Positions 3,000 to 21,390 of a stretch of DNA of 33,471 bases are shown in pieces. The DNA is from Catajapyx aquilonaris (taxonomy: Eukaryota): assembly GCA_000934665.2 (NCBI GenBank), contig JYFJ02004266.1, forward strand, positions 1 to 33,471, given 5' to 3'. The translations under genes and the position numbers were made by a program. Each line of letters starts with the position of its first letter. Position 1 is the stretch's first letter. The notes beneath the pieces were generated by a model. That model was not told the DNA's origin. It saw nothing but the letters and a program-made list of their open reading frames with translations, and did not search any database.

Positions 3000-4601
3000 A
3001 TGGCAGGAGTGGATCCATGGATGGTGACCCCTCAGGAGAGAGCGCGTCACATAGAGCAATTCCAGTTGCTGAAGCCCATCAGTGGGGTAGTAACCGGCGA
3101 CCAAGCCAAAGGGTTTCTCCTGCAGTCAAAGCTGCCCATGCCTATACTCGGACAGATCTGGTAATTAATCTGTAGATCATATCTGCACGAGATGAATTGC
3201 GGTGGGGATGTGTTCTGATTGCGATTTCTTATTCCAATGCGAAGGGGACTGGCAGATGCAGATTGTGATGGCAAGATGACCATAAATGAATTCAGTGTGG
3301 CTTGCAAGCTAATCAACTTGAAGCTGCGAGGGGTGGAAGTGCCTCCAGTACTGCCTCCTAGTCTAAAGGCAGTCCTGTCAATGCCCGTGCCCGGAGTCAT
3401 GCCAGGTGAGCAAAGAGAAATGTTGCATAGTCGACAGTGCCTTCAAGTGCGTAATTTTCCAGGTGTTCCCCCACCTGCGATGAGCATGGGTGTTTCATCC
3501 GTGGCTCCTCCCCATCCGCCACCGCCTCATCCTCCTCCCCCTCATCACGCCACTGCCCCTCCTCATCCGCCTCCGCCTCACCCTCCGCCGCCTCATCCCA
3601 TGCCTCCAGTGCAGCAGCAGATGCCTCCAGTCGGAATGGTCCAGAGCACCATGGCCTCTGGAGGGATCATGTCTTCCTCCGTGGGGATGATGGGAGGTGG
3701 CATCCCACCCACCAACCTCCCACTCAGCGTGGCTACGTCTGCCTACAACCTTCCCAACGGACCAGTGGTTGCTGCTGGACAAGTCAGGATGCCTATGCCT
3801 CCAATGTCCGCTCCCATGGCTGTGTCCATGGGCATGGTACCGCCAATGTCTATGGCTCCTCCTATGGTGCCTCCCATGTCTGCACATCCTCCCATGTCAG
3901 CTCCTATGGCACCGCCTGCAATTCCTCCGATGGCGCCTCCCATGTCAGCAGCACCCATTCAGGGTCCAATCCCTGGTCATTCTTCGGCAGGAGGCACACC
4001 TGTGTCTGATCCAAGGTCGCAGAGGTCTATGTCACTGGCTAGCGTTGAGTCTGCGTAAGTTCATGCCGTTGTGCTTCAGGATAGGCGGTGATTTTTTGTT
4101 GTCTCTGCTTTTTCAGAGGTTCAATTGGCTCTCCCTTGCAAGAGTGGGCGGTTCCACACCAGTCGAAGCTTAAGTACACCCAGCTCTTCAACCAAAATGA
4201 TCGAAGCAAGGCAGGATACATCTTGGGGCCTCAGGCTAGGAACATCATGGTGCAAACGCAGTTGCCGCAGGGCATACTTGCCCAGATTTGGTAATGACTC
4301 TCCATCAATTAACTAAGCATGCAATTTGTAATACAAATCACAGTAAATTTGTTAATAATAATTGGGCATTGTTTCAGGGGCCTTGCGGACTTGGATTCGG
4401 ATGGTCGCCTGACGTGCGATGAGTTTGTGCTGGCGTTGCACCTGTGCGATATGGCCAAGGCTGGCGACAAGATCCCTCTGACTCTGCCACCAGAGTTGGT
4501 TCCTCCTTCGTTCAGAAGGCAGAGACACGACTCCATCAAATCCGGAAGCCCTGCCTTGTCACAGGGAGGAAGTGATGATCTCTGTAAAGACGATCTACGA
4601 G
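3000..4601 (+). CDS. ITSN1: Intersectin exons for EH1, Pro/Met-rich linker and EH2
   Basis: [29 protein letters not shown] and [17 protein letters not shown]...[27 protein letters not shown] are EH/EF-hand motifs. Confidence 0.95.
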
Positions 4602-7600
4602 GTACGACTCCTCAGTAAACACTTTGCTAACTAGGATTAGAAAAATACTTGTAATTATTTTGTTTGCCGCACCTGTTGTATTAAGATGCGTATTGAGTGG
4701 GCATGGGATGATTTCCCGCCAGGTTCGTTTGAAGACAAGCGTAAAGAGAACTTTGAGAAAGGTCAGGCAGAGCTGGATCGCCGCAGAAAAGCGCTTGCAG
4801 AGCTCCAGAAGGCGGAGCGTGAGGAACGGGAGCGGAAGGAGAGGGAGGAGAACGACAGGCGGGAGCGGGTTCGACTGGAGCAGGAGAGGAGGAGGCAGCA
4901 GGAGCTGGAGAAGCAACTGGAGCGCCAGAGGGAGATAGAGCAGCAGAAGGAAGAGGAGAGGAGGGTGGTCCAGGAGCAGCGGCAGGCTGCCAGGAGAGAG
5001 ATGGAGCGGCAGAGACAGCTGGAGCTGGAGATGCAGAGGAGGCAGGAGCTCATCCAGCAGCAGCAGAGGGAGCAGGAAAAGGTCCTGCAACTCAAGCACA
5101 GCAACCAGAAGCTCACCCTCGAATTGGCCCAGCTGGTGAGTAACTTCTCGCGTAAAATTCAGAAGAAATCATTAAAAATTTGGCATTCCACTGGCAGAAT
5201 GAATTTCGAGCGCCACCGATAACACGCATCAGTAACGATTTACGCCGTACACATTTCCGTGCTTAATAAATTTTGCCTAATAAAAATCCTGTGCACATTA
5301 TTGCAGGTGTGGCACAATGCCATACAAAAGTTTATTATGTAAGTAAACTATTAATTACAATACGGAAAGAGATGGATCTGGTATAGATTAAACGAATTGT
5401 CGTTAGCCATCCTTGCGAGGAATTCACTTAAATTAGTTTTCTGCGATGGAGTAATTTTTTTTTTGTATTGCCATTTAGTGCTTACAGGTTTACTCTGACA
5501 TGAGAATAAAGGTTGCAGACCAAATCATCAGCAACTGCTGCAAGTACCACAAATGCTTTGTATGACGCTACTTACTATATAATTGACGTGACCCCACGCA
5601 GTTTGTGCGACAGATGCATCAAGATATATCCCGTCTGGGGTAAATAGAGCGCCAGCAACTTCGGTTCCGGATTTTACTTTCACTTTGGTGTAGCGGGAGC
5701 CTATTGTGGTCACCTTGATGCTGTTGACATGCGTTCCACTTGAATGTGTCACGTATCTGTTCATACTGGCACCGGTGGTGTATCCACGGGGGAAGTTGAT
5801 GCTCAGCCTGTCGGCTTCATCTGTGGCAGAGATGGCCACTTTCGTGACCCATCCCTTGACATTGATGACAAGCTTTGTGACGTCACCACCTACGCAGAGT
5901 TGCATCACCGAGAGATTCTTCCTTTCGTAAAAGCACTGGTTTTCACAGTCGCCGTCGCACTGAACCCAAAAGTCAGGATTGGCAGTGTCAGGCCTGAAGA
6001 CCTTAGGATCATGAATCACAATGCAGATGTCTTTGACGTTTCCCAGAGAAGAGATGCCAATGTAATCCGCGTCTCCATTAACGATGCACCAGAGATTTTG
6101 GATGTCTCCTCCAACGTTGAAGGTGCCTCTCTGGCCCATTTTTATGCTGATCAGCCAGAGCATGCTCTGGTACAAGATCTTGAGGCTGTTGAAGGGTCAG
6201 GAACAAATTAATACGAGGTCACAAGTATTTACGAAATGAATTATCCGTAGTCGCAATAACATTACTTTGTTCAACTTATTTATTGAGTTACTGCAAGTGA
6301 CTAGTTTTTGTTTTGATACCACAACAAAGGCAAACACGTGCAGAATATTGAGCCAGGTATGTCACAATTGTATAAAAGTGTGGTGTAATGAACATGTGTG
6401 GGCATACACATACCTGCACAACAGAAAAGCGATCGCATGTGAGTCTCAATATATGATATGACGTCTTCCAACACACATTCGTAAATGGAATGCCTATCAA
6501 GTTGTATATTGGATTTGCACAACAAGTTATGTTATCCATGGCAACAAATTTAATTTCCATGCTTTTACAGTAGGCCAGTAAGTTCAATCAGGTTCAATGA
6601 ACAGAAATACATTTGCTTGTCCTTTCAACAGAATGAGAAGGTGAAAGACCTGTCATCCAAGATCAGCGAGACTCGCACAGGCGTGTCAACGGTGAAGTCG
6701 ACAATAGACAAGATGCGTACAACCCGCGACTCAAAGATGCAGCAGTTGAATTCACTCAAAAACCAGCTGAAGGATCAGAACCAGCGCTTGCTTACCCTTG
6801 CGCAGGACAGGGCCAGGATGGACGCCAGGAACAAGGCCAATCCGACCGGAAATCCCAACAGTCCTTCAGCAGTGGCTGCCATTCAGATGCTCAACAACAA
6901 GCAGATTGCCCTCAAGCAGCTCAAGGACAGGCTGCAAGATCTGCAAGGAAGTGTAAGTTGAATCAATTGGCGACATTGCGGATGGGATAGTGAAACATTG
7001 CAAGTGAATCATTCCGTTGCAGATTCAGCAAAAGCAACAGGACATTGAGAACAATAATTGCCAACTCAATGATTTGAAGCAAAACCTGAACAACTTGGTG
7101 GAAGAGTGTCAGTTCGTTTACAAGGACTACGAAGAGAAGAAGAACAAGGTAAGGATTGCAATATTTTGAAAGGGGGAACCTGCTTATCTTATGCTGCGTT
7201 TAAAACTCCAGATATTGGAAATGAAAGGGAAGAAAACGGACTATTCCGCTGCTTGGAATGACAGTGCATGGGATGATGGCTCAGCTGCGGCTTCCGACTG
7301 GCCAGCAGCAGACGCAGGAGCCGGAGCCGCAACTGGCGACTTTGTGAAGTATCGCGCCCTGTACGAGTTCAAGGGTCGAAATCAGGATGAGCTGTCCTTC
7401 CAGCCAGGAGACATCATTCTTGTAAGTACATCCTGCTGACATGTCACTTATTAAGGCAATGACAGAATTTTGATTTTCAATGAGTACTTTTCCTGTTTCA
7501 GGTTCCTTTTGATCAAAACGCAGAACCTGGATGGTTTTCTGGCCAAGTGAGGGGTCTTTCTGGTTGGTTTCCTGAGGCTTACGTTGAAAAGATGAGTGAT

Positions 7601-10600
7601 GCTGCTGATGATGAATCGGCAGAGCAGGTGGACTCATTGCAGGTCAAGAGGCCTCTGGAGTAAGTGTGGCATCAGCTGTCGTTGTATTTGATTCTTGACA
7701 TTAGAAAAGCATTGCTGATGTCGTGGTCATTTTCAGGGGAATTCAAGAAGTGCCTGAGAATGTGAGTGACAATGGATCTTTAGCGGAGGCAGGGGCGGCC
7801 ATCCAGCAGGCAGTTGCTGCTGCTGACTCCCCAGTGTTGGACCAGGTTAGTCAACAGCTGACGTTGGCCGTCACTGACACCGACGAAATGCTAATGTCGT
7901 GCGTATTTCTTCAGAGGGAATCAGTAAGCAGCGAGCAAGTGGAAGCCGTATTTGCATGTCAGGGGAAGAACGACAAGTACCTGACCTTTAATCAAGGAGA
8001 TGTCATAACAATCAAAGAGCAACAGGTTTGCATAAGTGTTATCAAATAATTGCTGTTATTTTACTGAGATCAAATTTAATTGAAGGGCTCCTGGTGGTTT
8101 GGTGAACTAAACGGTGTTGAAGGCTGGCTTCCCAAATCGCATGTGAAGCCAGTGGGAGCTGACGTGGACTATTACGTGGCTCTCTACCCGTACAACTCCG
8201 CTGAACCTGGCGACCTGACATTCCAACAGGGCGAGGTAGTGGTGGTGGTCAAGAAGGACGGAGATTGGTGGACAGGGACCGTCGGAGACAAGACTGGCAT
8301 CTTTCCATCAAATTACGTACAGAAGGCTGCAAGCCAGGTTAGCACAATTCCGCTTGAAACTTCAGGCTGTGAATTATTAACATTTTACTAACACGTATTA
8401 ACATGGGGTGAACTCCTTGCGAATGAGCTTAATTAATACAAAACTTGGAAGGAAGTGTGCGAACTTTGGCAGCATAAATGAAGTATTTGCGGCATATAAG
8501 ATGCACTTTTCCGCCAAAAAGTGGCTCAAAAAATCGCCCTGCGAAAATACAATAGGAACTTTTTTTCCTGAATATGATCTGCTGAAATGCTTATATGCCG
8601 TCAAAATGTGTAACATTGGTGACATTTTAAGTTTTGCAGTTTTTACTGGGAAATGCGAGTGATTTGCAGCAAAATGCTGTAAATACGTAATTATGAAAGG
8701 ATGATTTTACATTTTATGCTGCCATCGTTGTGCATTTCCGATTGGAGAGAGACGCTAATTTCACCGCATAAACGCATGCACTTTCTCTCTCTCTCTCTCT
8801 CTCTCTTTGCCTGCACTCGGTAGAAGACATCGACTCAGCAGCAAGAGGTTGAAGCAAAGGTAGAATCTGCACCAACTGAAGCTCAGGTGAGGGCTAGAAA
8901 ATTAAAAGCCCATTAAACTGCATGTTGTAACGTTTCGTACAATGTGATTTTTCATTGTGTGTTTCGATATCTAACTGTTTCAAGTTCTCTCTCTTTTCCC
9001 CCCGTCCCCACTGAAACACACCAAAAACTGAACACAACACCTGAGTGTCTTTTTTGTCCCTTCGTTTCTTTCAATTTCCCCTGTCATTGTTCAGCCTGCA
9101 CCAGAGAGTGAGGTGGCTGCGGAGGAGACTGAAGCTCCTCCTCCACAAAAAACGGCACAGGTACAGTCAACCCTTTCCAAAACGAGCAAGTCGAAATTAC
9201 GTAACGACCCTAATTAACACACTGTGAAGAACAAAATTATCTGAGGGTCACTACGAAATTTAGTCTTGCACACAAACACTGCTTGTCATGGTGCTGAATT
9301 CACATCGGACAGTCACACTTATACTGAACAACGCATCAAGAAAATCATAACCTTTCTGGCACCTTTTTTTTCTAATTAAATGTGCGCTTTGCTTCTCTAA
9401 CACACCTAATAACTTCTTTTTTTTTCAATTATTAATATGTATTTTCCTCCATATGCATTCTCATGAAGGCTGAGGAAGAGCTAGATATGAAGGTACAGCA
9501 CTTTTTAAATATGCCACTTGTTATTCATCGTTTTAAATATTGTTACCAGAAATTAATGACAACGATTTGCTTTCGATTTACTGCAGATCATGCTACGTAC
9601 TTGAAGAGCCTGTTGTATCAATATGTAAAGCGCAAAAGCTTTGGCAACATAATTGGTACAACAGGCCTTGCGTATTTTCCCAGGTTTAACGTAGAATTAA
9701 ATTTTTAACCCGACCAACACTGCAACTTCCAGCGAGTGCTAACAAGATGTATTACAAGTTCCCATAGAAATTAACGTCGCTGTGTACTGTACCTAGGATA
9801 TGCATTTTGTGCTTTGTGTGAGCGTATAGTAATGCCGACACTTGTGTTTCTCTTGTGCTGCCTGGATTGTATTGAAGGAATTGCAAGAGATTTACATGCC
9901 ACCCAAATCGCCCAAGGTATTTGTCCGTGGATTGTCTGCTTAACTAGTTGTATAATTAAGATGAAACGTTCTTAATTTTGACAAATTACTGCACCATAAG
10001 TGACACGCTTTTTTTTTAAATTATGAAAATCGGCAATAATACTGCATTTTTTGAATAATATATGATGCGCGATACGGTAAATTGTCAATTATCAAACTAT
10101 TGAAAACATTTGTGTGCGGGATGACAATGGTTGACTCACATTTTCTTGCACATGTCACAGGGAAAAGGCAAGAAGCCGGAGATAGCCACAGTTCTGGCCC
10201 CTTATCAGGCGACCAGCACGGAGCAGCTGAGCCTTCAAAGAGGTCAGCTCATAATGATCAGGAAGAAAACGCAGACTGGCTGGTGGGAAGGAGAGCTTCA
10301 GGTACACCAATCCGTCTTAAATTTACTTGCGCAGTTTTGTAATTTAAAAAAATGCTGGTGCTTTTTCAGGCTAAAGGGAAGAAGAGGCAGGTGGGTTGGT
10401 TCCCGGCTTCGTACGTGAAGCTTATGGGAAGCTCCAGCGCAAGGAGTACTCCGATAAGGGAGATGATGGGAGACAGCAGTGCCACTACGCCTACTCAGCA
10501 ACCTGACGGATCGGGTAAGCTTCTTCCGAGACGCATGCCGAGTATTCACATGGTACATCAAGTTAACGCATCATACTTCCTCTACAGAGCAAGTGGTAGT

Positions 10601-13600
10601 GTTGTATCCGTACACTGCGCAGAACGAGGATGAACTAACGATTCAGAAGGGAGACATAATCACGGTGCTGGCGAGAACGGAGCCGGAGTGGTGGAAAGGA
10701 GAGGTGAAAGGAGTAGTCGGCATGTTCCCATCGAACTACGTGGAAGCATGCTACCAGAGGGGACCCTCAGGATCGCAGTGTAAGTGAAACATTCGATTAG
10801 TTTTCTGACTATTGAGCCTGTAGAACACACAAGTCTTTTTTAAGAAATATTTGCATGCTGAAATTTTTTTCGAGTATATTCACAGGCATTTTTTTCTCTT
10901 TCTCTCCTCCCTGATTTTTTTATTGGGGTTGGGACGATAGGAGTTTCTCCTCTAGCCAACATGGCGTCTGCTACATGAGACCCACTACTAGTATTAAAAG
11001 AAATTAAAGACATCGTTTTAGACACTGGAAAAAAAAAAAACGGCGTCAGCAAGTTATGGGATGCAAAAAAAAAAAAAAAAGTAATGTTTTAAAAAGGCAG
11101 AAGCAACCGGGAAGAACTTGATTTGTCTTCGGAAGTTTGGTATTGTTGTTTGTTGTTGTTGCTGTTTGTTGTTGACTTAGAGGGCGAAGCACCAAGGAGG
11201 TCTAAAGTTTTAATGAATACTTGTTGTGGTGCATGAATCCTTTTTTTATTTGTTTGGTTGCTGTGAGGATTTTATTTTTTTAAATTAGTCTGTTAATGTG
11301 ACGAATTAAATTTTTTTTCTTCTGCTTATGATGATGTAACTGTTGAATGTATGGCCCCCCTTTATGTTGACAAGCATGTTTTGTCAAGTGTGTTTAAAAA
11401 ATATATAATCCAACCCCCCCCTTTTTCAAAAAAAAAAAATGACAGTGTGGTAGTGGGTCTCATTTAGTGGATGCCTAATTAAGTAATACTCTACAAAAAA
11501 ATGGTAGTGAATGCACATTTTAGAAAGTGTTGAATAAACATCCGCCAAAAAGGATGATTCCACTACCATACTTCACAATGTCTTTTTCAATGCCTTTTTG
11601 TCACAGAGATTTACTGCGGAGGCTGCTTAGTTTTTGTTTTAAAACTCTCCCCCAAGTTTTTTAAATATAACCTATGCAATGTTTTAGTTGCAATCATTGG
11701 GTGTCGGCTTGAAAGATGTGTGTATATGTGCTAATAATAATTTTTATTTTTCCCAACCATCGCCCCCCTTTTTGCCTGTCGTACTCTGATCCAAATGTAT
11801 AAGCCGACCTCTTTAAACTCTGTGAATCTCGGACAATAGCAGTGTGACATTCCATTTATTTTTATTTCGTAATGTTTTCGTAAGTTTCACACATTGCTCG
11901 TTTAAAAAAGCGCCTTCCATAAGTAATAGTAATAATAATCAATATTATATACCTGTCGACTCAGTACTTTGGGGAAAACCATGTAAGTCGTCACTCATGT
12001 TCAACCTCTCAGAATGATTTACATTGTTTTCCTGACACGGTTTAAAAAAAAAATAATCTCACTGTTAAAATCTCAGTTAATCGATGAAGTACGTTGAGAT
12101 TTCTTTTACTGGTCATGGCTAAGCAGCCGTTGCTGTTTGTGGTGCTCCGATTTATTTTGTATCAGTTTTTTTATATATTATATATATTTTTTGTGGGGAA
12201 AGATCTGGATTTACTATGGGTTTTATTTTCTTGCAAAAACGAGTCACACGTAAAGAGTTAGACTATTTGCCTAAAATATATCACAAGGATGTGTGGAACA
12301 AAGTGTGGGTATGTATGTATACCAAGCACCATTTCTGTGTGAGTTTAACAAAAGCAGCAGATTTGGGAATTGAATCCCAAGGCTTAGCAATAAATATAAT
12401 TTAAAAAAATAAAATACAATTGTATTTAAAGCAGAAAATGTCTTCAATGTCTCATCTGCACAATAATGTTTTGTGGTTAGAAATGAGATTATTATTGGTA
12501 GCCCTGCTGCACAGGAGGTTCATGCGATTTTATCCGTATCACCAAATCAGTGTGAGTGTATAAAACTTAATTATAATTATAATAATAAATCTCAATGTGA
12601 ATGTTGGGAATAAATGGCGAGTGGTCAAAAAATGCCCTGTGAAAATAAAGTATATTAAGCGTTAAGTTTTCTTTTTTCTTTTTTGCTCAGTGTGCAAGCG
12701 AGCCTTTACACTTTTTTTTAAATCTCTCTCCCTAAATGTGTGTTTTGCAAGCTATTTAAAAAAAAAAAGTACATATAAGGTAGGTCCCACCAAAAAAAAA
12801 CTTATGTTTAATTTGCTAGCGGCAATGAATTAATCTGTGTTTCCATTTTGTGTTGCAGTCTTTAACCATGCGGCTTACGATCAACTTTCGCCAATCGAGA
12901 AAAAAAGGCAGGGGCATATCCATGAGCTAATTAACACAGAACAGACATATGTGGATGACATGTCGATAATTAATAGTGTACGTACGCATTTTACTCGTTA
13001 TACGTTTCGAGTATAAATTTTTTTAATCAGCTTTCGTTGATAGGCTTTCAGGAAGCCAATGCACGAGTCCTTACTGTTAACGGACGTCGAGCTGGCCAAG
13101 ATTTTCGTCAATTGCAAAGATGTGTACCAGTGCAACACAAAGTTACTCAAGTAAGGCTGTAAACTACTGGAGCGAAAGGATACAGATTAAATGGTGGTGT
13201 TTTTTTTTCCAGAGCATTCCGAGTTAGGCGTAAAATGTGCGTAAATGGAATAATACTCATGATTGGAGATATACTCTGTGAAAACGTAAGGTTTCAATGG
13301 TTGATAACGAGTTAAATCTGTTGTTAACGTGCACTTCTTTGTTGCAGTTGGTGCGGATGTCTCCATACATTAGGTTTTGCAGCTGCCAGTTAGGTGCAGC
13401 CGCATTGATCCAGCACCAGACTGAGACTTCCCCCGACTTTTGCAAGGTGATGAAGAAGTGTCAGATGGACATGCGGACCAAGGGAATGCCTCTCAGCAGC
13501 TTCCTCATCAAGCCCATGCAGCGGATCACCAAGTATCCTCTTCTCATCAAAAAGGTTATTCATCCGAGATTGTATACCTGTCGTTTGAGGTTGGTTCCTG

Positions 13601-15760
13601 AATTACATGCAGTCTAAATCTATTCTCAGATTCTCGAATTCACTCCTGAAAATCATCCTGACCGGCTGAATCTAGAGGAAGCGCTTACTAAAGCGGAGGA
13701 GCTGTGCAGCCAGGTGAACGAGGGAGTGCGGGAGACTGAAAACTCAGAGAGGCTCGAATGGATGCAGACTCACATCAACTGCGATTCGCTAGACGAGCAG
13801 CTCGTCTTCAACTCGCTCACAAATGCCCTCGGACCGAGGAAGTTTATCCACCACGGTTTTCTAAAGAAGGTACCTAGTTGCAACCCTACCGCTGCTAGAG
13901 AAACTTATAGTTCTCGTCTCTTTCAGGCCAAGAGTGGGAAGGAGCTTGTAGCTTTTCTTCTGAACGACTTCCTCCTGCTGGCCCAGCCCAACAAGCCGTT
14001 GGGCCAGACATCGGGGCAGTTTTCGTTCGAGCGCAACCAGAACACTCATTTCCGCATCTACAAGAAGCCGATTTTCCTGAACGAGATGATGGTCATGTCG
14101 GACGCTTCCATGTACAACAATAACAACGGCGGTGCTGAATGCGAATACGAGTTCTCAATCCAAGATCTGGACAGGGTGTACACACTTGTGGCAACGACTG
14201 CTTCCGAGAAGAAGATGTGGAAGAAGAAGCTGGAGGAAGCCAGGAAGAACTACTTGGACACGGAAAGATGCTTTTTGCAGAGGCAGCAGTCGAGTGAGTC
14301 GGGGGGGCTCGAAATACGTTTGGTTTTTCATTATACGCCACAAATTGGCAGCAGAGACTTTAATTTTGAGGTGACAAGTCGCATGTATTTCAATGTTTTA
14401 AATCCATTTATAGTTCAAAAGTCATCTAGATGAAGCGACTATTCCCGATCCTTTATTTTGCGTAATGCTCTTGAAGTGTGATTTTAATTGTATGCGATAT
14501 GATTGGTAGCAGTGCTGAGCGTTAATTAATGAACTGATAATTATCCAGAACAAGCTCATTTCCAAGCGTGCGGACGCTTGTTAATAGGAGTCCAGGAAGG
14601 AATCAACATCAGAGCACAAACGGCCGGGGGTAAGATCCGCTCGTGTGTTGAAAACATCTCTGTCCGCCTTCGCTCTGCATGGACAAAATCGCTATTGTGT
14701 TTCTAATCTTAGGATAGTTACCTCTGCTCCTTTTTTTTCCCCCTTGTCTAACAAGTACTCTGTGCAACAAATGTAGTGCATGACCCCTTCTATTATTTCG
14801 CTGCTTCTCTTTGCTGCTTGTAGTTAGGAGGAGGCCTCCGAAGGGAAAGATGAGGGTCATTGTTGTGGAAGGAGATGAGCTTTTCTGCAAGGGGGCCAAC
14901 GGTAAGGACAACACATGATCAGCGCACCTGTGAAGCGACTCTTCTGGTTGCACTGCAGTTGGGACATATTGAATAATAATTAACTGTCATTTCAAGGGGA
15001 TAAAGACACTTTTAATGCACATCGGAATTTTTTTAAAAACCTTTAGCGTAATCTACATAGTCCAGTTCTGTAGTGTGCGATTGTAAATTGCTTGTACAGT
15101 AAGTCAGGGTTACGCACTGTAGCACTTTGAAGCGTATTTAGCGCAGATAAAGTAAGCATTGTCAATTGTTCTTTGACTTTGTAAGATTGAGAAACTGAAC
15201 TGCTTGATATTCATGAACAATTGAGGAAAAGTACTGTTTATGTTGCACCAAATATTGCATGGATTGCGAACCTGCTACTTCCTGTCCGAATGGGCATGTT
15301 ATTTTGGTTCGAGTTTTTTTTTTTTTACATCATCTGGGCTTTACTCACGTTTGTTGACCTTCCAGGGAAGATTGATCCGTACTGCGAGGTGAGCATCGGC
15401 TCCCAGCATCACTGTACCAAGGTGATTCCCGGTAGCACCAATCCGAAGTGGAATTCCAACATGCAGTTCCTCATCAAGGACGTGGAAGATGACGTCCTTT
15501 GCGTCACTGTCTACGATCGTGATTTATTCGCTCCAAACGGTGAGAGTGCCACTAGTTAATATTGCACCTTCACTTAACTGACACTTTCTCTTTAAATATG
15601 ATTGGCAGAATTTCTGGGGCGTACAGAAGTTCGAGTGTGGGACATACTTCAAGAGAGCCGGAGCAGCCAGGGACCAATTACCAAGCGGCTGCTCCTACAT
15701 GAAGTCGAGTCTGGAGAGGTCGTGATGAAGCTTCACTTGCAACTCTTCGACTCCAAGTAG
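3000..15760 (+). CDS. ITSN1: Intersectin (ITSN/Dap160 family), long isoform: EH1-EH2-coiled coil-SH3A-E-RhoGEF(DH)-PH-C2; multi-exon
   Basis: ATG 3000 ([21 protein letters not shown]), TAG 15758-15760. Phase-consistent GT-AG exons: 3000-3160, 3245-3405, 3463-4054, 4117-4290, 4378-4601, 4723-5135, 6632-6952, 7023-7148, 7212-7421, 7502-7659, 7737-7845, 7915-8025, 8086-8337, [micro-exons 8824-8886, 9095-9160, 9469-9492, 9878-9916], 10161-10301, 10370-10514, 10588-10779, 12859-12977, 13044-13150, 13213-13285, 13348-13554, 13630-13869, 13927-14293, [14549-14629 or 14824-14901], 15366-15539, 15609-15760. Hallmarks: [56 protein letters not shown]. The symbol denotes the family; ITSN1 versus ITSN2 is not resolvable in an invertebrate. 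Confidence 0.96.
4723..7148 (+). CDS. ITSN1: Intersectin coiled-coil (KLERQ-rich) exons 4723-5135, 6632-6952, 7023-7148
   Basis: E/R/Q/K/L-rich heptad sequence; splice phases are compatible across the 1.5-kb intron. Confidence 0.93.
5528..6185 (-). CDS. nested antisense gene (terminal exon, ~215 aa, Cys-containing, beta-rich; weak VWD-like resemblance) within intersectin intron 5136-6631
   Basis: 648-nt open frame in an otherwise AT-rich intron; acceptor-like TTCAACAG just upstream (exon start 6185); minus-strand AATAAA at 5331-5336 downstream of the stop; the start/upstream exon is unresolved. Confidence 0.6.
7212..10787 (+). CDS. ITSN1: Intersectin SH3A-SH3E exons; short isoform ends by read-through ...GPSGSQCK* at 10787
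   Basis: Five SH3 signatures: [70 protein letters not shown]. Donor T|GTAAGT at 10779/10780 overlaps the in-frame TGT AAG TGA. Confidence 0.9.
8784..8806. repeat. (CT)n microsatellite acting as polypyrimidine tract before micro-exon 8824-8886
   Basis: tctctctctctctctctctctct immediately upstream of the acceptor TAG 8821-8823. Confidence 0.8.
12859..15760 (+). CDS. ITSN1: Intersectin long-isoform extension: DH (RhoGEF), PH and C2 exons
   Basis: [106 protein letters not shown]. Confidence 0.95.
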
Positions 15761-16581
15761 TTAATTAGTTCGTAGTCTAAAAACTGATCAAGTGTACAAA
15801 ATATTGGATTGCCTAAGTATCTCTCTCATGGCATATTGCTTAGGTGTTTTCGTATTCTTTTGCATAATCATGACTGAGCCTTTCTTTCTATTGTGATAGG
15901 TGGTGGGCGGGAGGAGAATCAAATGTTACTCAGGGCTGTTTAAATGTCCATTCCTCACTCTTTGTAGTGGTACCAAGTATATTTATTTTTATTATTATTA
16001 TCTATCCAATTATCAGTTAGTCGTAGGTTTTCTTTTGGAAGATGCAATATATTTATAAGAGGTGGATTCAAGCATTATTTTGTGTTGGGATACTGAAAAC
16101 AATAAAGAGCGCATGACATTATCACAGCCGATGTTTATTGTCGCCTTCCCAACAATCCACAGACGTGAAGATTGACATGTACACATTCGAGCAATGAGAC
16201 ATAACGAATTTGGATGCATTTTTAAAATGTGTTTGCTTGCCCGATTTGTTATTAACCAACTGAACTTAAATTACATCTGTAATTATTAGGTAATGTCACT
16301 TGTAACCCAGCTTACTAATTAACAATGGATTTTTGCCGTAATGTTCAGGCGTCACAACATTTGCTTTTCTACGATGAGCAAAACTACTATAGAACGACTT
16401 ACAAATTAACAGCACACAGAATGTAACTAGATGAATGTCTACTTGCAATTAAAACATGCATCGTCCAATACAATGATAAAAAAATAATAATGCAAAGTAG
16501 GGAAGATGCATTTACAAAACAGCAACGAACTAAAATGAAATTTTAAAAAAGTCATACGAATAAGACAGTTGGCCATGAATC

Positions 16582-19500
16582 CTACGATGCAGTTTGTCGG
16601 CTGGAGGTGTTGACGTTACTGCCCGGCTTCTCATGAGGCTACCAAGAAGAGAAAAATACGTTTTAAGTTCACTGTACATGAAAACTATTTGTCTCAAAGT
16701 AAACTTGGCAATTTCCGCAGAAATCCCCCATCAGATGTATGTTAAAACTGCCAGTACCTGATCAGTGCTGCGACATTCAGAGCTTCCAGGAGGATCCCAG
16801 TCACCACTTGGTCCAGACGATCGCCCCTGTTTGGCCAGCTGAATCAGGAAATCCGGGATGCTGTCTCCCTCCTGCACAAGATAACTCATGAACACACTTC
16901 TGGTATGAACACGACAGACGCACTCACATCTTTAAGGAGGTGGACCAAGGGGTCGATCAGATGGGCATCCTGTGAACAGTCGACAAAACTGATGGCTCGG
17001 CCAGCAGTGGTGCCCAAGCACCTGGTGAGTCCAAGGCGTCGCAAGTACTCCTCTATGTTTCTCGGCATGTCATAATTTATGATGTGGACAGGAGCCACCT
17101 CCTTCAGATCTACAAGGAAACAATAATAAGCATGACTTGTACATTTTTTTTATTTGAACACACGGGACTATATGCTTGTTTAAGTTTGGACTGACATCAT
17201 CATTTACTGCGCAAAACATGACTGAATAAGCGCAACCCATTCCGTACATTATTTTGTATGAAGTACCCGACTGCTTATGCTTAGGACTCACTCAAACTGA
17301 GGGCAAAGGACGTGGTAACGAGGATGGGCATCCTTCCGTTGATGAACTTGCCAACAGCACGGTCGACCAAGATCTTCTCCGAGTCTGAATGTATCCCATC
17401 GATGCAAAATCCATTCTGGAGCAGCATCATGGGCAGGGCATCGGCACTGCGCTTCGATCCTACAAAAATGACGACGTGGTCTGTGTTTTTCCTCTCCGTC
17501 AGGATCTGTAGCAGCTTATCTTTCTTCTCAGCGCGGTTCAGCTAATGAAAAACCCATTAGTGCATTTTGTGTACTTAACAATAGTTGGCGTTACGTACCT
17601 GGTAGAATGTTTGAATCACGTTTGCGCCACCACCAATGCTGAGAGAAACGAAGTTATCCTGGAGGAACAGCGACTGGATATTCTCATCGGGAACCATGGT
17701 GGCCAGAAGCACATTTAGGCGCCGGCTCTGTAAATGGGTAACAGTCATTGACGTCCACCAACAAGCAGAAATTATCGTTACCTTGGGAGGCATGGAGTCG
17801 TGCTGCAATATCTTGTCGATATCTTCGGTGAACACTTCATCCAACATCCTGCTGGCATCAACCGTAACGAGGCATTTGATCTGCTGGAAGCTGACCTTCT
17901 CCCTCTCCATGAAGTAGACCAGTCTTCCTGGACTGGCCACAAGGACGTGACAACCTGCTTCCAACTTGCTGGCCTGATCATTCACGTTTATTTTGCCGCA
18001 CAAGAGGACCGTCTTCATATGCGAGTAGTACGTCAACTTCATGATTTTGTAGTATATCCGAGTTGCCTCCTCCCTAGTCGGGGACAACACCAGGACTATC
18101 GGACCCGCCTTCATCGCTGGCCTATCCCTCTCCATAACGCCCAAGGTGGCGTTCAGGATGGGGAGCAAGTAGGCCATGGTCTTTCCTAACCCTCTCGGAG
18201 CACACAACAAGAGATCCCGGTCTTGGATCACGATGGGAATCACATGGCTCTGAATGGACGTTGGCACTTTGATGTTATGTATCTTTAGACTTTGGGCCAG
18301 GACATGACTCAGATCCATATGGGCAAAGCTTTTCAAGGGTTGCGGGATGTCTTTGCCTCGCACCTTCACTTTCATCGAGAATACCCCAGGGTTGAGCGTT
18401 GGCACATTAATCTTGACCTCCAAACTATCCTTGCACATGTTCAAATAATGTTTGCCATTAGTCTCCCTGGAGTCTTTTGAACCGCTCCGATGGCTTTCCT
18501 TAGCCGCATAACCACCAAAGTTGTACCCAGCAGGAAGAATCCCTTTCCTTTCCTTCGGAAAGTTATTGGCAGCCCAAGTTTCAGCAGTTGTCGTCAGGTT
18601 GCTACTCTCATGGGAGTCAAATGAAAACCGGACATGGCGGCTGTTGTCACTGTTGCCCCCACCACGGCTCATAATTCCTTTTAGCTTCTCCTCGGCTGTT
18701 TGTGGTGAACTATTGGTGTCACAAGTAGCCTGGGATGCTTGAGTTGATGCGGACATATGCTCAGATGGCAACTCCTCTTGCTCTGTATCTTTCTGGATGT
18801 CACATGTAGAATTGGTCTGTCCGGTGTTGTCTTCCTCCTCATCTTCGAAAGTTTCGGTGCTGCATGAATATTGATCAGCATCGCTCTGAGTAGCCATAAG
18901 AGTGGAAGTGTGGGATTCTGGTTCAGGCAGTGGTTCTGTTTGGACCATGTGACTGACCATATTGTCAGAAAATTCACTGCATATTTCTTCACTGTCACAT
19001 TGCGAAACTTGTGCGTCCAGTTCATCTACATGGTAGGGACTAGTCCGGGCCAGCAAATCAGGGGTTCCAGCTGGGGACAGTGTCAATTCTGGGTTTGTTT
19101 GAGTACCGCTGTCCTGGCAAGTACTATTCTGTTCTCTGTCGCTGACAGGATCACAGTCAGAATCCTTCTTATTCTCCTCATCTTTGAAATTGTCTGCATC
19201 CGACTCTTCATCACCTTCGCGACAGGTAGCCTCAACCACCACAGTTGATTCTTCCTGAGGCAATGCTTCAGGCGGAATCTTCTGCGTATCGTTCTCTTGA
19301 TTGTCTTGGTCACTACAGATGTTCTGGCTGGTGCGGTTAAATCCATCTTCGCTTTGCTGTTCACTCTGAACTACATAATCTTTTTCTGATTTTTTCTCCG
19401 AGTCGACAGCTACGGCAGCCAATGTGATGGCTTCAGCATCAGCCAATGTCAAATTTGGATGCGACAGCAACTTCTCATAGACATCAGTGTCCTGCAGACC

Positions 19501-21246
19501 AAATAGCAAGTGATCTCTGATGGTATTGTGCAACTCCATAAAATTGCAGCTGCTTGCAAGCTGGTGGAGTGCAGCTATGTAATCAGACATAGACTCTGAA
19601 TCATGCTTAACACGGTTGCGGAAACAAATGCGATTAAGCAGAATGTCACGGGTGGACATGAAATGAGTACTTAGTACCTCCTTCAACTCATTGTAGGACA
19701 GGGCCATCACATCAGCGTGAGGGACCAATGTGAGTAGGAGGCTGTATGTGGCTTTTCCAACAAATGTCAATAGCAGGGAGCGCTTACGTGCTTCATCCTT
19801 GATGCCAATTGCACTCAAGAAGAGCTCGAATTTCGTGCAATAATCAGACCAACTCATCTCCGTTGAATCAAATGGCTCCATCAGTCCGACAATACCACCA
19901 CACACGGTAGCTGTAAAAGGAATTAAAAGCAATAGTACATCAGTAGAAGTCAAATAGTGTTATGTACAGGGGGCTTGAATCGCCCTGGAAAATCCCATGG
20001 ATATCCACTGAATCTCCAATGGATATTTGGGCGTCCATAGGATATTCCAGGGTGATTCACATGCTACTCACAGGCATAGCCCAAGTTGATGGGAAATAGC
20101 CATTAATGTTGTTTGATTGTTGCAGAATTTTCTTGAAATTGTTTGAGCGCTCCTTAATTTTTTTTTTTCACAAATGTTTTGCATGGACAGACAGGTGGGT
20201 CATTCCATGTCAATACAGACAAGTTGGTGGCTCTACCATCTCAGAATTTGATATAAAAAAATCATGTGCTTACATACACATGAGCTGTTGCTAAAAACGA
20301 AATTAGAGCCACCCATAGATTAAAATCCCACGGAGATATGGCAACCTCCTTCGGCAACAATGGAGCCGGACTGACACTTTATTTCAGGTAGAGTTCTTGT
20401 TGTAACCCCATGATCATGTATGTCAAAGGAACCGGAATGAAATGAGGGATATTGTGGTGGCAACGGCTTTAACCTTAGAACGCAAAATAAAAATTCTAAA
20501 AAAATCCGAATTATTGTGCGAAAATGGCACATTTCCGATGGCCCAATGCCACTGTTAAACGCATGCTACGAGTGTTAAATTAATGTGGTAGATACATTGT
20601 CATGTGGTCCTTACTACTGTATATAAGGAAAACAATACAGGTCATGAAGTCTTGGAAATAATAAATCCTGAAATTCCATTTTTCTGTAAGGTGGTCATCT
20701 TTGAGGTCATTTTTCTCAATGTGGGACTGGACCGATTTTAAAGTTACATGTCTTGCTTACAGAAAAATGGAATTTCAGAATTTATTAATTACTACTAAAA
20801 AAGCTATATCTTTTGAAAGAGAGCGTCGCTCTCTACACAAATGAAAAATAAAAAATAAAAATAAAATGGCTTTTTTTGAATATCTTTTGAATTTTTTTAA
20901 TATACATGTGTTCGCTGGTTACCAACTTTTTCGCAGTTTTCAGAACGGTTCTGGAATAATGTATTCATTGAAAGCAATGGAAAAAAAAAAAGTGCATCTT
21001 CCTGTGAATGTTATTTTGGTCCCTCCTCCCTTAGGGCCGTTTTTTCGAACAGTGGTTCAAATGTAAACCGGGTTCAAAGCCAGTTGATTGTTGTTAGGCT
21101 GTTGTCAAGGGTTTAAACCGGCTTTGAACCGGGTTTACATTTGAACCACTGTTCGAGAAAACGGCCCTTATTCGAATTTTCTCAACAATTATTGCCAATC
21201 TTGCATTACCCGATATACTACACTTATTACCTTTGTTGCAGTACAT
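16582..21246 (-). CDS. Gag-capsid / Vasa(DDX4)-DDX3-like DEAD-box pseudo-helicase fusion gene, 7 coding exons
   Basis: Minus-strand exons with compatible phases: 21246-21231 (MYCNK, phase 1, tentative), 19910-17782, 17727-17599, 17541-17292, 17109-16928, 16871-16758, 16638-16582 (TAG). The N-terminus is Gag-like; the C-terminal half has Q motif PTSIQ, APRGLGKT, SPTREE, SPGRL, VDASRMLD, VIFVGSKRSAD, IINYDMP and GRAISFVD. Confidence 0.88.
19408..19890 (-). mobile_element. Ty3/Gypsy (K02A2.6-like) Gag capsid-derived coding domain embedded in a host exon; no pol or LTR seen
   Basis: EPFD..EMSWSDYCTKFELFLSAIGIKDEARKRSLLLTFVGKATYSLL...SYNELKEVLSTHF...RICFRNRVKHDSESMSDYIAALHQLASSCNF...IRDHLLFGL...EKLL..PNLTLADAEAI follows the recognisable Gypsy Gag consensus (W..Y.ERL..., R.Q..GESV..Y...L..LA..C.F, RD.LV.GL, L.LTL..A). 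Confidence 0.85.
19976..20059. repeat. short inverted repeat (MITE-like remnant) in intron 1 of the fusion gene
   Basis: TGAATCGCCCTGGAAAATCCCATGGA vs TCCATAGGATATTCCAGGGTGATTCA, 26-bp arms with 3 mismatches. Confidence 0.6.
20660..20786. repeat. inverted repeat with 31-bp arms
   Basis: AATAAATCCTGAAATTCCATTTTTCTGTAAG (20660-20690) vs CTTACAGAAAAATGGAATTTCAGAATTTATT (20756-20786), 1 mismatch. Confidence 0.7.
21034..21167. mobile_element. PIF/Harbinger-type (Tourist-like) MITE
   Basis: ~48-bp near-perfect TIRs starting GGGCCGTTTT / ending AAAACGGCCC, flanked by TTA at 21031-21033 and 21168-21170 (3-bp TSD). Confidence 0.8.
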
Positions 21247-21364: not shown

Positions 21365-21390
21365 CGGCGTCCAAAATGGCGGACGGAACG
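21365..21390. promoter_or_regulatory. YY1-type motif CAAAATGGCGG; likely promoter/TSS region of the Gag-helicase gene
   Basis: CCAAAATGGCGGAC at 21371-21384, ~125 bp upstream of the putative ATG at 21246. Confidence 0.45.

Follow-up and report, generated by a model that had tools for sequence, protein, structure and literature searches.

A minus-strand gene was identified in the 33,471-nt window (the whole stretch of DNA analysed here, from a host genome of arthropod type), where it lies tail to tail with a neighbouring intersectin gene. Its product starts with a capsid (CA) domain of the Ty3/gypsy Gag type (about 165 aa), followed by an acidic linker of 320 aa and a two-lobed DDX3/DDX4-type helicase core, probably of the Vasa side. 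The gene and its associated features are as follows.

16582..19910, minus strand: whole gene, with six exons and a CDS of 943 aa (start ATG 19881, stop TAG 16582-16584)
19387..19881, minus strand: Gag CA-like domain of the Ty3/gypsy type, with both lobes by sequence profile (residues 1-165)
18427..19386, minus strand: acidic linker rich in Ser, Thr, Glu, Asp and Gln (residues 166-485)
17782..18426, minus strand: RecA1 of the pseudohelicase, in exon 1 (residues 486-700)
17599..17727, minus strand: exon 2 (residues 701-743), with motif III LAT (708-710) in place of SAT
17292..17541, minus strand: exon 3 (residues 744-826), in which RecA2 and motif V start; motif IV (VIFVGSK) is kept and QxxR is lost
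17110..17291, minus strand: intron 3 (182 nt, GT..AG), removed in RNA contigs
16928..17109, minus strand: exon 4 (residues 827-887), with motif VI RRLGLTRC (850-857) in place of HRIGRTGR
16758..16871, minus strand: exon 5 (residues 888-925), with IPDFL in the conserved C-terminal helix region, and GDWD internally
16582..16638, minus strand: exon 6 (residues 926-943 and the stop)
21231..21246, minus strand: putative mini-exon (MYCNK, phase 1), a candidate from sequence only
21372..21380, minus strand: GCCATTTTG, a putative promoter element termed YY1-type in the original prediction

The Gag part, the linker and the first helicase lobe share a minus-strand open frame of 794 codons (17575-19959); when the same letters were shuffled 1000 times, the longest open frame had 209 codons. 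Five further exons, separated by introns of 54, 57, 182, 56 and 119 nt with GT-AG borders at all five, restored the frame, and the spliced product thereby aligned end to end with Vasa/DDX3 proteins (32-38% identity over ~410 aa). The open frame, the six GT-AG exons and the two homologies thus bear out the intact, spliced Gag-linker-helicase gene that had been proposed. GC3 was 0.52 in the Gag part and 0.45 in the linker versus 0.675 in the helicase core and 0.63-0.76 in the intersectin exons, which would fit a 5' half that is younger or under weaker constraint. Upstream of the gene, the phase-matched mini-exon and the GCCATTTTG motif exist as had been described; of 57 ATG..GT candidates with matching phase in 3.09 kb, the former (21246-21231) was the sole case with a good donor, and the latter occurred once in the window. 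The mini-exon was supported by none of the X5 transcriptome contigs, and it is dispensable due to the in-exon ATG.

For the N-terminal 160 aa, homology to Ty3/gypsy Gag was revealed by an exhaustive phmmer search that matched the proteins P0124, P0173 and P0175, with an E-value of 3.8e-31 for P0173 (query 37-193 versus protein 16-169). By Pfam, P0173 carries Gag, PR, RT, RNaseH and INT, and the pairwise identity was 23-29%. Moreover, a four-row profile (A1) matched the dArc1 capsid (6s7x) with an E-value of 9.5e-5 in an alignment spanning both lobes, and all four of its rows matched the Pfam family Retrotrans_gag at E <=0.1 (best E 1.9e-5). The Gag domain alone scored below the Pfam gathering score for PF03732 Retrotrans_gag (16.3 bits versus the cut-off of 24.1, E 0.012). 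Among the columns common to two Gags of transposable elements (TEs), 21-28 were kept by the domain versus 32 by a third TE Gag. The phmmer matches and the profile match to dArc1 therefore support the capsid-like N-terminus claimed in the original prediction. At the level of the fold, the N-lobe model (residues 1-79, pLDDT 80-92) resembled CA lobes with an rmsd of 2.5-3.5 over 65-76 residues and Z of 5.6-7.8, and RecA1 was modelled confidently by AlphaFold2 (pLDDT 80-96), whereas the C-lobe model was poor and Foldseek returned no match at E <=0.001 for the Gag-domain model (E at least 0.13). The best 22 rows of a wide VIA-align search were all retroelement capsids (22/22), with modest Z (<8), and the Ty1 Gag CA-CTD restriction factor Drt2 was one of the fold matches.

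The linker that follows had a pI of 4.2, a net charge of -44 and a GRAVY of -1.21, and is predicted to be disordered, with a pLDDT of ~30 and no secondary structure in the AlphaFold2 model. It matched no Pfam family, and its 320 codons were free of stops in 0/5000 shuffles.

The helicase core was recognised by Pfam DEAD (PF00270) at the C-terminal end of the 794-codon frame with an E-value of 2.6e-28, and its best solved relatives were Vasa (2db3) and DDX3X (E ~1e-38), with 35-38% identity to Vasa-type rows over both RecA domains. A quick tree placed the query, which has a very long branch, outside the DDX3/Ded1 clade (SH-aLRT 97) and nearest to Vasa-named rows. Of 170 columns conserved among 20 relatives, the core kept 95, compared with 152-168 per relative. 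The core retains the two-lobed fold, the Q motif (PTSIQ) and the P-loop, as motif I reads APRGLGKT (561-568), motif Ia PTREEA and motif Ib SPGRL. By comparison, motif II is VDAS (674-677) instead of DEAD, motif V across the junction of exons 3 and 4 reads TTSFALSLNL, with ALSLNL where ARGLD is expected, and two of the three arginines of motif VI are lost. With Walker B/DEAD, SAT, the RNA/ATP contacts of motif V and the motif VI arginines gone, neither ATP hydrolysis nor a Vasa-like closure on RNA would be expected, and the helicase is thus predicted to be catalytically dead, a point overlooked in the original prediction, whose RNA-clamping helicase folds are unlikely given the loss of motifs II, III, V and VI. 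An RGG-rich or CCHC-knuckle N-terminus, which is typical of Vasa though not universal, was absent, as the protein has one RGG and no CCHC; no nucleocapsid zinc knuckle follows the CA domain. Likewise, the protein ends in ...SSRQTAS and lacks the terminal acidic-Trp motif of Vasa, its GDWD lying ~30 residues before the end; in the available part of PMC4400588, Vasa orthologues are described as carrying an acidic, Trp-containing motif at their very C-terminus. Vasa/DDX4 and Belle/PL10/DDX3 are the closest sequence relatives of a protein in which a GINF-like flank and the IPDFL region remain recognisable, but which differs from them in the catalytic motifs and both termini.

Expression of the gene was assessed in X5, identified as an RNA run by seven GT..AG joints in its intersectin contig. 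One contig removed intron 3 exactly (joint 17109->17292, with plus-strand borders CT..AC, a depth of 2.1 and a side of 32), and a second used the same splice site in frame (depth 4, side 30) with 7 letters different at the junction. A third contig, of 249 nt, matched the Gag part exactly at 19647-19895. The X5 contigs hence show that one intron is spliced and that the Gag part is transcribed, and the RNA evidence for the gene is thin: X5 is one small run with contig depths of 2-4, in which 17592-19313 is uncovered and the Gag and helicase parts never share a contig.

In summary, the locus is best explained, with a probability of roughly 0.55, as a transcribed, spliced and lineage-restricted chimeric host gene whose product serves as a non-enzymatic scaffold or decoy. 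Its origin would lie in a Ty3/gypsy Gag whose CA part, lacking nucleocapsid, protease, RT and integrase, became joined to a Vasa-side DDX3/DDX4 paralogue via the acidic disordered linker. Strict domestication, with orthologues under purifying selection, and selection on the Gag part itself are putative. The CA domain may self-associate or co-assemble with the Gag of related gypsy elements, and the dead Vasa-like core could be a source of Vasa-type protein contacts. Furthermore, the acidic tail and the ~50-kDa core stand where a basic nucleocapsid would recruit RNA, such that in a retroelement particle they might impede RNA packaging and shell closure, like a Gag-derived restriction factor. By analogy, the proposed action would be that of Fv1, Ty1 p22/Drt2 and enJS56A1, namely a Gag/CA fragment entering or binding assembling particles and blocking them. 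Fv1, p22 and enJS56A1 are Gag-derived restriction factors consisting of Gag fragments alone, with no host enzyme fold. A more specific version of this scaffold or decoy, in which it is a germline restriction or sorting factor whose CA domain recognises and enters gypsy-type particles during assembly, whose dead Vasa core docks the complex onto partners of Vasa in nuage and whose acidic tail excludes retroelement RNA from the particles, which RNA would then pass to the piRNA machinery, with two or three diverged, expressed copies reflecting an arms race with the elements, is speculative and rather improbable. Vasa carrying point mutations that are expected to abolish its catalysis can still localise to nuage and sustain oogenesis, as described in the available part of PMC4400588.

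Among the alternatives, the strongest, although unlikely, is that of a young or decaying chimera, in which a redundant vasa paralogue, drifting to a pseudogene, acquired a Gag fragment and non-coding sequence as exonic sequence in front of it, the protein being functionless. The loss of all catalytic motifs would fit such decay, as would the very long end branch (5.89 versus a median of 0.85, about seven times longer), the low GC3 values of the Gag part and of the linker, and the low RNA depth. An orthologue was also not found in protein searches: none of the 1.84 billion representatives, a set that includes no close relative's proteome, combined both domains, and two protein searches yielded no close relative of the fusion protein, a weak negative since the databases hold no close proteomes (even the neighbouring intersectin had a closest database match of 56% identity). 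The architecture was absent from the protein databases and literature searched, consistent with its having been called undescribed. In addition, one copy may lack the Gag part, as X1, X2 and X3, the DNA contig sets of another individual, each had one contig joining 18599 to 20195 and removing the Gag part, with a shorter side of just 20 letters. On the other hand, when the core's excess divergence was simulated as neutral (indels ignored), just 5 of 2000 runs remained free of stops, which argues that this divergence was not neutral. The GT-AG borders of all five introns, the open linker, and the second diverged copy, whose observed junction is likewise spliced in frame, also speak against decay, as does the conservation of the Gag domain, which is nearly that of real TE Gags. 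The other individual's DNA over the Gag-linker piece 19305-19746 had 15 gap letters in total, a number divisible by three, and four differences were listed in the CDS, two of them non-synonymous and both at the end of the Gag domain.

A lesser chance still is given to a mobile or repeatedly duplicated element, for example a retroelement derivative with a captured host helicase, forming a small multicopy family. The summed DNA depth in the runs X1-X3 was ~90-210 over 16731-20174 versus 36-72 over intersectin, with two or three contigs overlapping in places, and suggests a gene copy number of 2-3; diverged X5 contigs (92% alike over 19552-19776, and the variant splice junction) point the same way. 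However, such a small gene family also fits the chimeric host gene, and the Gag part was no deeper in DNA than the helicase part, so that a high-copy source element at >=90% identity is not indicated. Moreover, the five short introns are of host type, and the window contained neither LTR-type direct repeats or terminal repeats flanking the gene nor a second gene copy. None of the 18 flanking or overlapping ORFs had a Pfam match, with no PR, RT or INT nearby; together with the repeat and CCHC searches, this agrees with the earlier statement that zinc knuckle, protease, RT, integrase and LTR are absent.

The strong version of the original prediction, closed capsids lined with working RNA-clamping helicase domains and carrying RNA, is very improbable. 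A complete CA domain is present, and the domesticated CA proteins dArc1 and PNMA2 form capsids according to the titles of their structure entries, but the DEAD, SAT, motif V and motif VI sequences are lost and the linker is strongly acidic where retroelements have a basic nucleocapsid. In addition, ~86 kDa per subunit would not fit inside T=4 or T=9 shells in a rough estimate from known capsid sizes, making closed capsids with this C-terminal load sterically doubtful. Least credible of all is an assembly chimera, in which the Gag and helicase parts are not contiguous in the real genome, since, despite the short contigs of the other individual over the gene, the X3 gap at 18740-19026 and the odd 18599->20195 joint, independent DNA contigs in X1, X2 and X3 span the Gag-linker border (19305-19746), no bin of the gene is left uncovered in X1 and X2, nor in X3 outside that gap, and the frame passes both junctions free of stops.

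Regarding the chimeric host gene as the preferred reading, it can be placed among several known systems. The SCAN domain corresponds to the C-terminal CA lobe only, occurs in vertebrates and is fused to DNA-binding zinc fingers, whereas the fusion gene described here, from a genome of arthropod type, probably encodes a full CA and joins it to a dead RNA helicase. SCAN-domain zinc-finger proteins, which the available parts of their descriptions present as host proteins with a capsid-derived N-terminal association module (bioRxiv 10.1101/2025.03.03.638093, PMC3458555), may nevertheless be regarded as the nearest match in principle. Similar to Arc/dArc1, PNMA and PEG10/RTL-SIRH, the gene harbors what is probably a full two-lobed Ty3/gypsy CA in a host context without pol, and several RTL/SIRH proteins combine a full CA with long unstructured regions, as stated in the available part of PMC10516033. 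In contrast, a comparably large second folded host domain is absent from those proteins, none of which is fused to a helicase ('helicase' has 0 occurrences in the available parts of PMC10516033 and PMC8321522), and their conservation across species is documented. In Crtg10-KELP and Crtg14-PEX14, described in the available part of PMC8321522, a host gene is likewise fused to a co-opted gag gene of an LTR retrotransposon, but with other partners (a transcriptional co-activator and a peroxin) and in other lineages.

Since hosts repeatedly reuse retroelement capsid domains and Vasa-type helicases are central to germline defence against the same elements, one protein with both would, if the reading is true, form a direct physical link from retroelement assembly to the host RNA-granule machinery. 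It would likewise follow the SCAN zinc-finger proteins as the second instance of a host protein with a capsid domain as its N-terminal module, and would be a further case of a helicase retained as a non-enzymatic fold. For the latter, yeast Utp25 and C. elegans MUT-15 are described, in the available parts of the sources, as helicase folds without catalytic motifs in a scaffold role, MUT-15 being the pseudohelicase scaffold of a small-RNA complex in transposon silencing (bioRxiv 10.64898/2026.09.04.749402); both differ from the fusion protein in having no sequence kinship to it and no capsid domain.

The minus strand holds an open frame of 794 codons (17575-19959), the longest open frame in 1000 shuffles of the letters being 209 codons, and strand reading combined with a scripted border test resolved the following exons:

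19910-17782, minus strand, exon 1, with the ATG at 19881
17727-17599, minus strand, exon 2
17541-17292, minus strand, exon 3
17109-16928, minus strand, exon 4
16871-16758, minus strand, exon 5
16638-16582, minus strand, exon 6, with TAG at its end

The introns (54, 57, 182, 56, and 119 nt) have GT-AG borders in 5/5 cases and are comparable in length to the introns removed in an RNA contig of the neighboring intersectin gene (several of 57-75 nt). Intron 1 is in frame and without a stop, which is why the raw open frame extends beyond 17782; its retention (17728-17781, 54 nt) would insert 18 residues between helicase motifs II and III and leave the protein unbroken. The spliced product has 943 aa. 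The core of the original prediction, a capsid domain, an acidic linker, and a DEAD-box core in one spliced gene, was confirmed by the frame, the homologies, and the exon borders, and a real chimeric gene encoding this 943-aa protein is highly probable. The fuller reading, a transcribed and spliced host gene that unites a capsid with a dead helicase of the Vasa side and acts without enzyme activity, is somewhat favored (probability roughly 0.55).

For the capsid (CA) domain alone, Pfam returned only a sub-threshold match to PF03732 (E 0.012, 16.3 bits; cut-off 24.1), phmmer against PDB sequences gave 0 matches, and a word-based search among longer proteins gave none at E <= 0.001. Searched exhaustively with phmmer, a set of 1.84 billion representatives yielded three proteins matching the capsid stretch (P0124, P0173, and P0175), of which P0124 is a series of Gag-protease units and P0173, a pseudoscorpion protein with the source name 'K02A2.6-like', shows the Ty3/gypsy domain order of Gag, aspartic protease, RT, RNase H, and integrase. 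In a four-row alignment of the domain with three element Gags (A1), the query showed 23-29% identity to the elements, which share 31-37% among themselves; at columns common to two element Gags the third element retains 32 and the query 21-28, indicating that the capsid domain is nearly as well preserved as a working Gag. The A1 profile matched the Drosophila Arc1 capsid over both lobes (6s7x, E 9.5e-5; 6tap, E 1.4e-4), and the five remaining rows were unrelated (E >= 0.043). A second alignment (A2), which took in whole polyproteins, was too scattered at 3460 columns and was set aside.

Structural comparison pointed in the same direction. The AlphaFold2 capsid model built from A1 had a mean pLDDT of 62.5, and of the folds originally predicted, CA lobe 1 and the first RecA domain were modelled well, whereas lobe 2 was poor. 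Foldseek with this model found nothing in PDB at E <= 0.001, its ten best rows (E 0.13-2.7) all being retroelement capsids (Copia, Ty3, dArc1/2, RSV, Arc, and PNMA2). In a fold search independent of Foldseek, the first 22 rows were all capsid or capsid-derived chains (Z 5.6-7.8), with lobe 1 superposing at an rmsd of 2.5-3.5 over 65-76 residues; since common helical arrangements can also score Z < 8, the folds are supportive rather than decisive evidence, and the sequence carries the capsid case. By sequence comparison, the N-terminal domain is thus assigned to the Ty3/gypsy capsids. No CCHC knuckle follows it in the protein sequence of the gene.

The linker (residues 166-485) is acidic and predicted to be disordered, with 21% D+E, 22% S+T, a pI of 4.2, a net charge of -44, and a GRAVY of -1.21; it had no Pfam family match, and in the AlphaFold2 model of the large exon it showed a pLDDT of ~30 without secondary structure. 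None of 5000 shuffles of the linker was stop-free.

With regard to the helicase core, the large exon matched the Pfam DEAD family (E 2.6e-28), and its nearest solved structures were Vasa (2db3) and DDX3X (E ~1e-38). The spliced core aligned over ~410 residues with 59 DDX3/DDX4-type proteins from the exhaustive phmmer search at 32-38% identity, and the first RecA domain reached a pLDDT of 80-96 in the AlphaFold2 model. Of 170 conserved columns (the same in at least 80% of the 20 relatives compared), the query keeps 95 and the relatives 152-168 each, and the losses extend to the catalytic motifs.

Helicase motifs, in canonical form (for the Q motif, the 80% consensus of the 20 relatives) and as found in the gene
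Q motif: PTPVQ, PTSIQ in the gene; kept
Motif I: AQTGSGKT, APRGLGKT in the gene; GKT kept
Motif Ia: PTRELA, PTREEA in the gene; kept
Motif Ib: TPGRL, SPGRL in the gene; kept
Motif II: DEAD, VDAS in the gene; lost
Motif III: SAT, LAT in the gene; lost
QxxR motif: lost in the gene
Motif IV: VIFVGSK in the gene; kept
Motif V: ARGLD, ALSLNL in the gene; lost
Motif VI: HRIGRTGR, RRLGLTRC in the gene; lost

According to established knowledge of DEAD-box enzymes, these losses imply that ATP hydrolysis and ATP-dependent closure on RNA are gone, and the core would accordingly be a complete but catalytically dead pseudoenzyme. The Vasa/DDX3-like helicase originally proposed stands as to the completeness of the core, but the loss of motifs II, III, V, and VI, which makes it a pseudoenzyme, had been missed. 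Altogether, the protein joins a full CA domain, through its disordered acidic linker, to a Vasa-type core that is folded but lacks catalytic motifs.

A quick tree placed the query beyond the starred DDX3/Ded1 clade (SH-aLRT 97), the nearest rows by path being proteins with the source name vasa (planthopper, ant, and sponge) together with millipede and mayfly proteins; because the query has a long end branch (5.89 vs a median of 0.85), this placement is unsure. PMC4400588 describes an acidic-tryptophan C-terminal end specific to Vasa. Such a terminus is absent from the protein of the gene, which ends in SSRQTAS with GDWD ~30 residues before. The Vasa connection is what gives the locus its interest.

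Regarding retention of the frame, the query shares a mean of 36% identity with six Vasa-type rows, which mutually share 56%. A neutral point-substitution simulation, run until the core kept 65% of its residues and ignoring indels, produced 6.2 stops on average and only 5/2000 stop-free runs, suggesting that the core diverged while its reading frame was preserved. RNA evidence came from X5, a run with the same organism code, in which a 1904-nt intersectin contig with seven GT..AG joints identified the run as a transcriptome. An X5 contig joins 17109 to 17292, exactly intron 3 (depth 2.1, shorter side 32 letters), with CT..AC borders on the plus strand that read GT..AG on the minus strand. A second contig has the same joint (depth 4, side 30), where seven of its letters differ; on the minus strand the differences leave the frame intact and change two residues of the degenerate motif V, which points to a second expressed allele or a paralogue sharing intron 3. 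Moreover, a 250-nt contig matches 19647-19895 with zero differences, covering Gag part and 14 nt 5' of the ATG, and a further contig (19552-19776) is 92% alike. X5 thereby shows transcription of the Gag part and splicing at one intron. X5 coverage is empty over 17592-19313, and no X5 contig bridges Gag and helicase or crosses the acceptor at 19910. Another X5 contig lies at 16229-16483 (depth 2.6, 5 differences, 9 gap letters), between the end of the intersectin contig at 16114 and the stop of the gene at 16582, and may belong to the 3' UTR of one or the other of the two convergent genes.

The DNA runs X1-X3, from one sample of another individual, bear on the continuity of the locus. Every bin of the gene was covered in X1 and X2, and all bins but 18740-19026 in X3; contigs of all three runs cross from Gag into the linker (19305-19746) and show 6 differences and 15 gap letters in total, the latter number being divisible by three. 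Summed depth over 16731-20174 was ~90-210, compared with 36-72 for intersectin, and in places two or three contigs lie over one another, which together suggest two or three copies of at least 90% identity. Depth over the Gag part does not exceed that of the remainder of the gene, so no high-copy source element at least 90% identical was seen in these runs. Four of the listed differences affect the CDS; R32 and L858 are synonymous, whereas D148H and V157E are non-synonymous. Another 187 differences stand outside this listing, and four are too few to be weighed.

Two observations speak against an old, settled gene. The Gag part and the linker have GC3 values of 0.52 and 0.45, respectively, below those of the helicase core (0.675) and of three intersectin exons confirmed by RNA (0.63-0.76); by this measure the 5' half seems younger, or host codon use has shaped it less. 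Furthermore, one contig per run of X1-X3 joins 18599 to 20195 (depth 19-32), a joint that would delete the acceptor, the ATG, the entire Gag part, and ~790 nt of the linker. Its shorter side has just 20 letters, CAGG ends both sides, and a high-copy repeat has its edge at 20196; the joint may represent an allele with a deletion, a repeat inserted into another copy or paralogue, or an artefact.

As for whether the architecture is known, a protein with both parts was expected to score above ~200 bits in the exhaustive phmmer search; just two proteins exceeded 150 bits, P0123 with three tandem helicase units and P0124 with its Gag-protease units, and neither held Gag and helicase together. A whole-exon word search gave 126 matches among 7999 scored candidates, the 120 listed all being DEAD-box proteins with no Gag family among their precomputed Pfam assignments, and the ESM Atlas returned DEAD-box clusters exclusively (scores <= 0.81). 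The closest database protein to the intersectin of the window has 56% identity, and its best named relatives are from arthropods (insects, springtails, an ostracod, a horseshoe crab, and a scorpion), indicating that the species and its near relatives are absent from protein databases and that blank searches are of limited value. No description of a capsid-helicase architecture was found in open-access papers or bioRxiv; in PMC8321522 and PMC10516033 'helicase' has 0 occurrences, and in PMC13389597 it occurs in the reference list alone. The locus can be described as pairing a pseudohelicase with a capsid domain that was putatively co-opted onto a host module.

Functionally, the protein would work through binding rather than catalysis. 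CA domains self-associate and associate with related Gag, and the SCAN family illustrates that a host protein can use a capsid-derived domain at its N-terminus for association, like the arrangement proposed here. In retroelement Gag, CA points its C-terminal side toward the inside of the particle, where the basic nucleocapsid binds RNA, whereas the gene has the -44 linker and a folded ~50 kDa core in that position; within a particle, its protein should counter RNA packaging and shell closure. Gag-derived restriction factors oppose both steps, and the proposed action is similar to theirs (e.g., Drt2, which was among the fold matches of the capsid model). A decoy or scaffold role is a tentative and rather doubtful proposal. 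Related cases include Drosophila Vasa point mutants presumed catalytically dead, which are still in nuage and support oogenesis (PMC4400588), and the C. elegans pseudohelicase MUT-15, reported as the scaffold of a small-RNA complex (bioRxiv 10.64898/2026.09.04.749402).

The surroundings bore out the absence of retroelement context noted originally, with no LTR-like direct repeats found flanking the gene and Pfam matches in 0/18 flanking or overlapping ORFs; nor was a second gene copy found within the window. Upstream, the proposed mini-exon (21246-21231) was, among 57 phase-matched candidates, the sole one with a good donor, and the window contains a single GCCATTTTG motif; both are plausible candidates. 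In the 1.3 kb from the large exon to this proposed first exon lie two MITE-like palindromes, both repeated in very many copies:

21033-21168, MITE-like element, 53-nt arms, 94% complementary
20656-20790, MITE-like element, 35-nt arms, 94% complementary

The bin holding the 21033-21168 element had a summed DNA depth of ~10,000-15,000 vs 40-70 for single-copy sequence, indicating a very abundant family, and the element also lies within other X5 transcripts (loose ends at 21030, 21139, and 21170). Intersectin (~3200-16114, plus strand, convergent with the gene) comprises EH, coiled-coil, SH3, DH-PH, and C2 parts; its seven GT..AG introns within 13150-15608 were confirmed by the 1904-nt RNA contig, and the other individual carries a 25-nt insertion after 14502, within an intersectin intron. 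In addition, a tandem array at 631-1168 (51-nt unit, 10.6 copies, 92% matches) holds several open frames on both strands.
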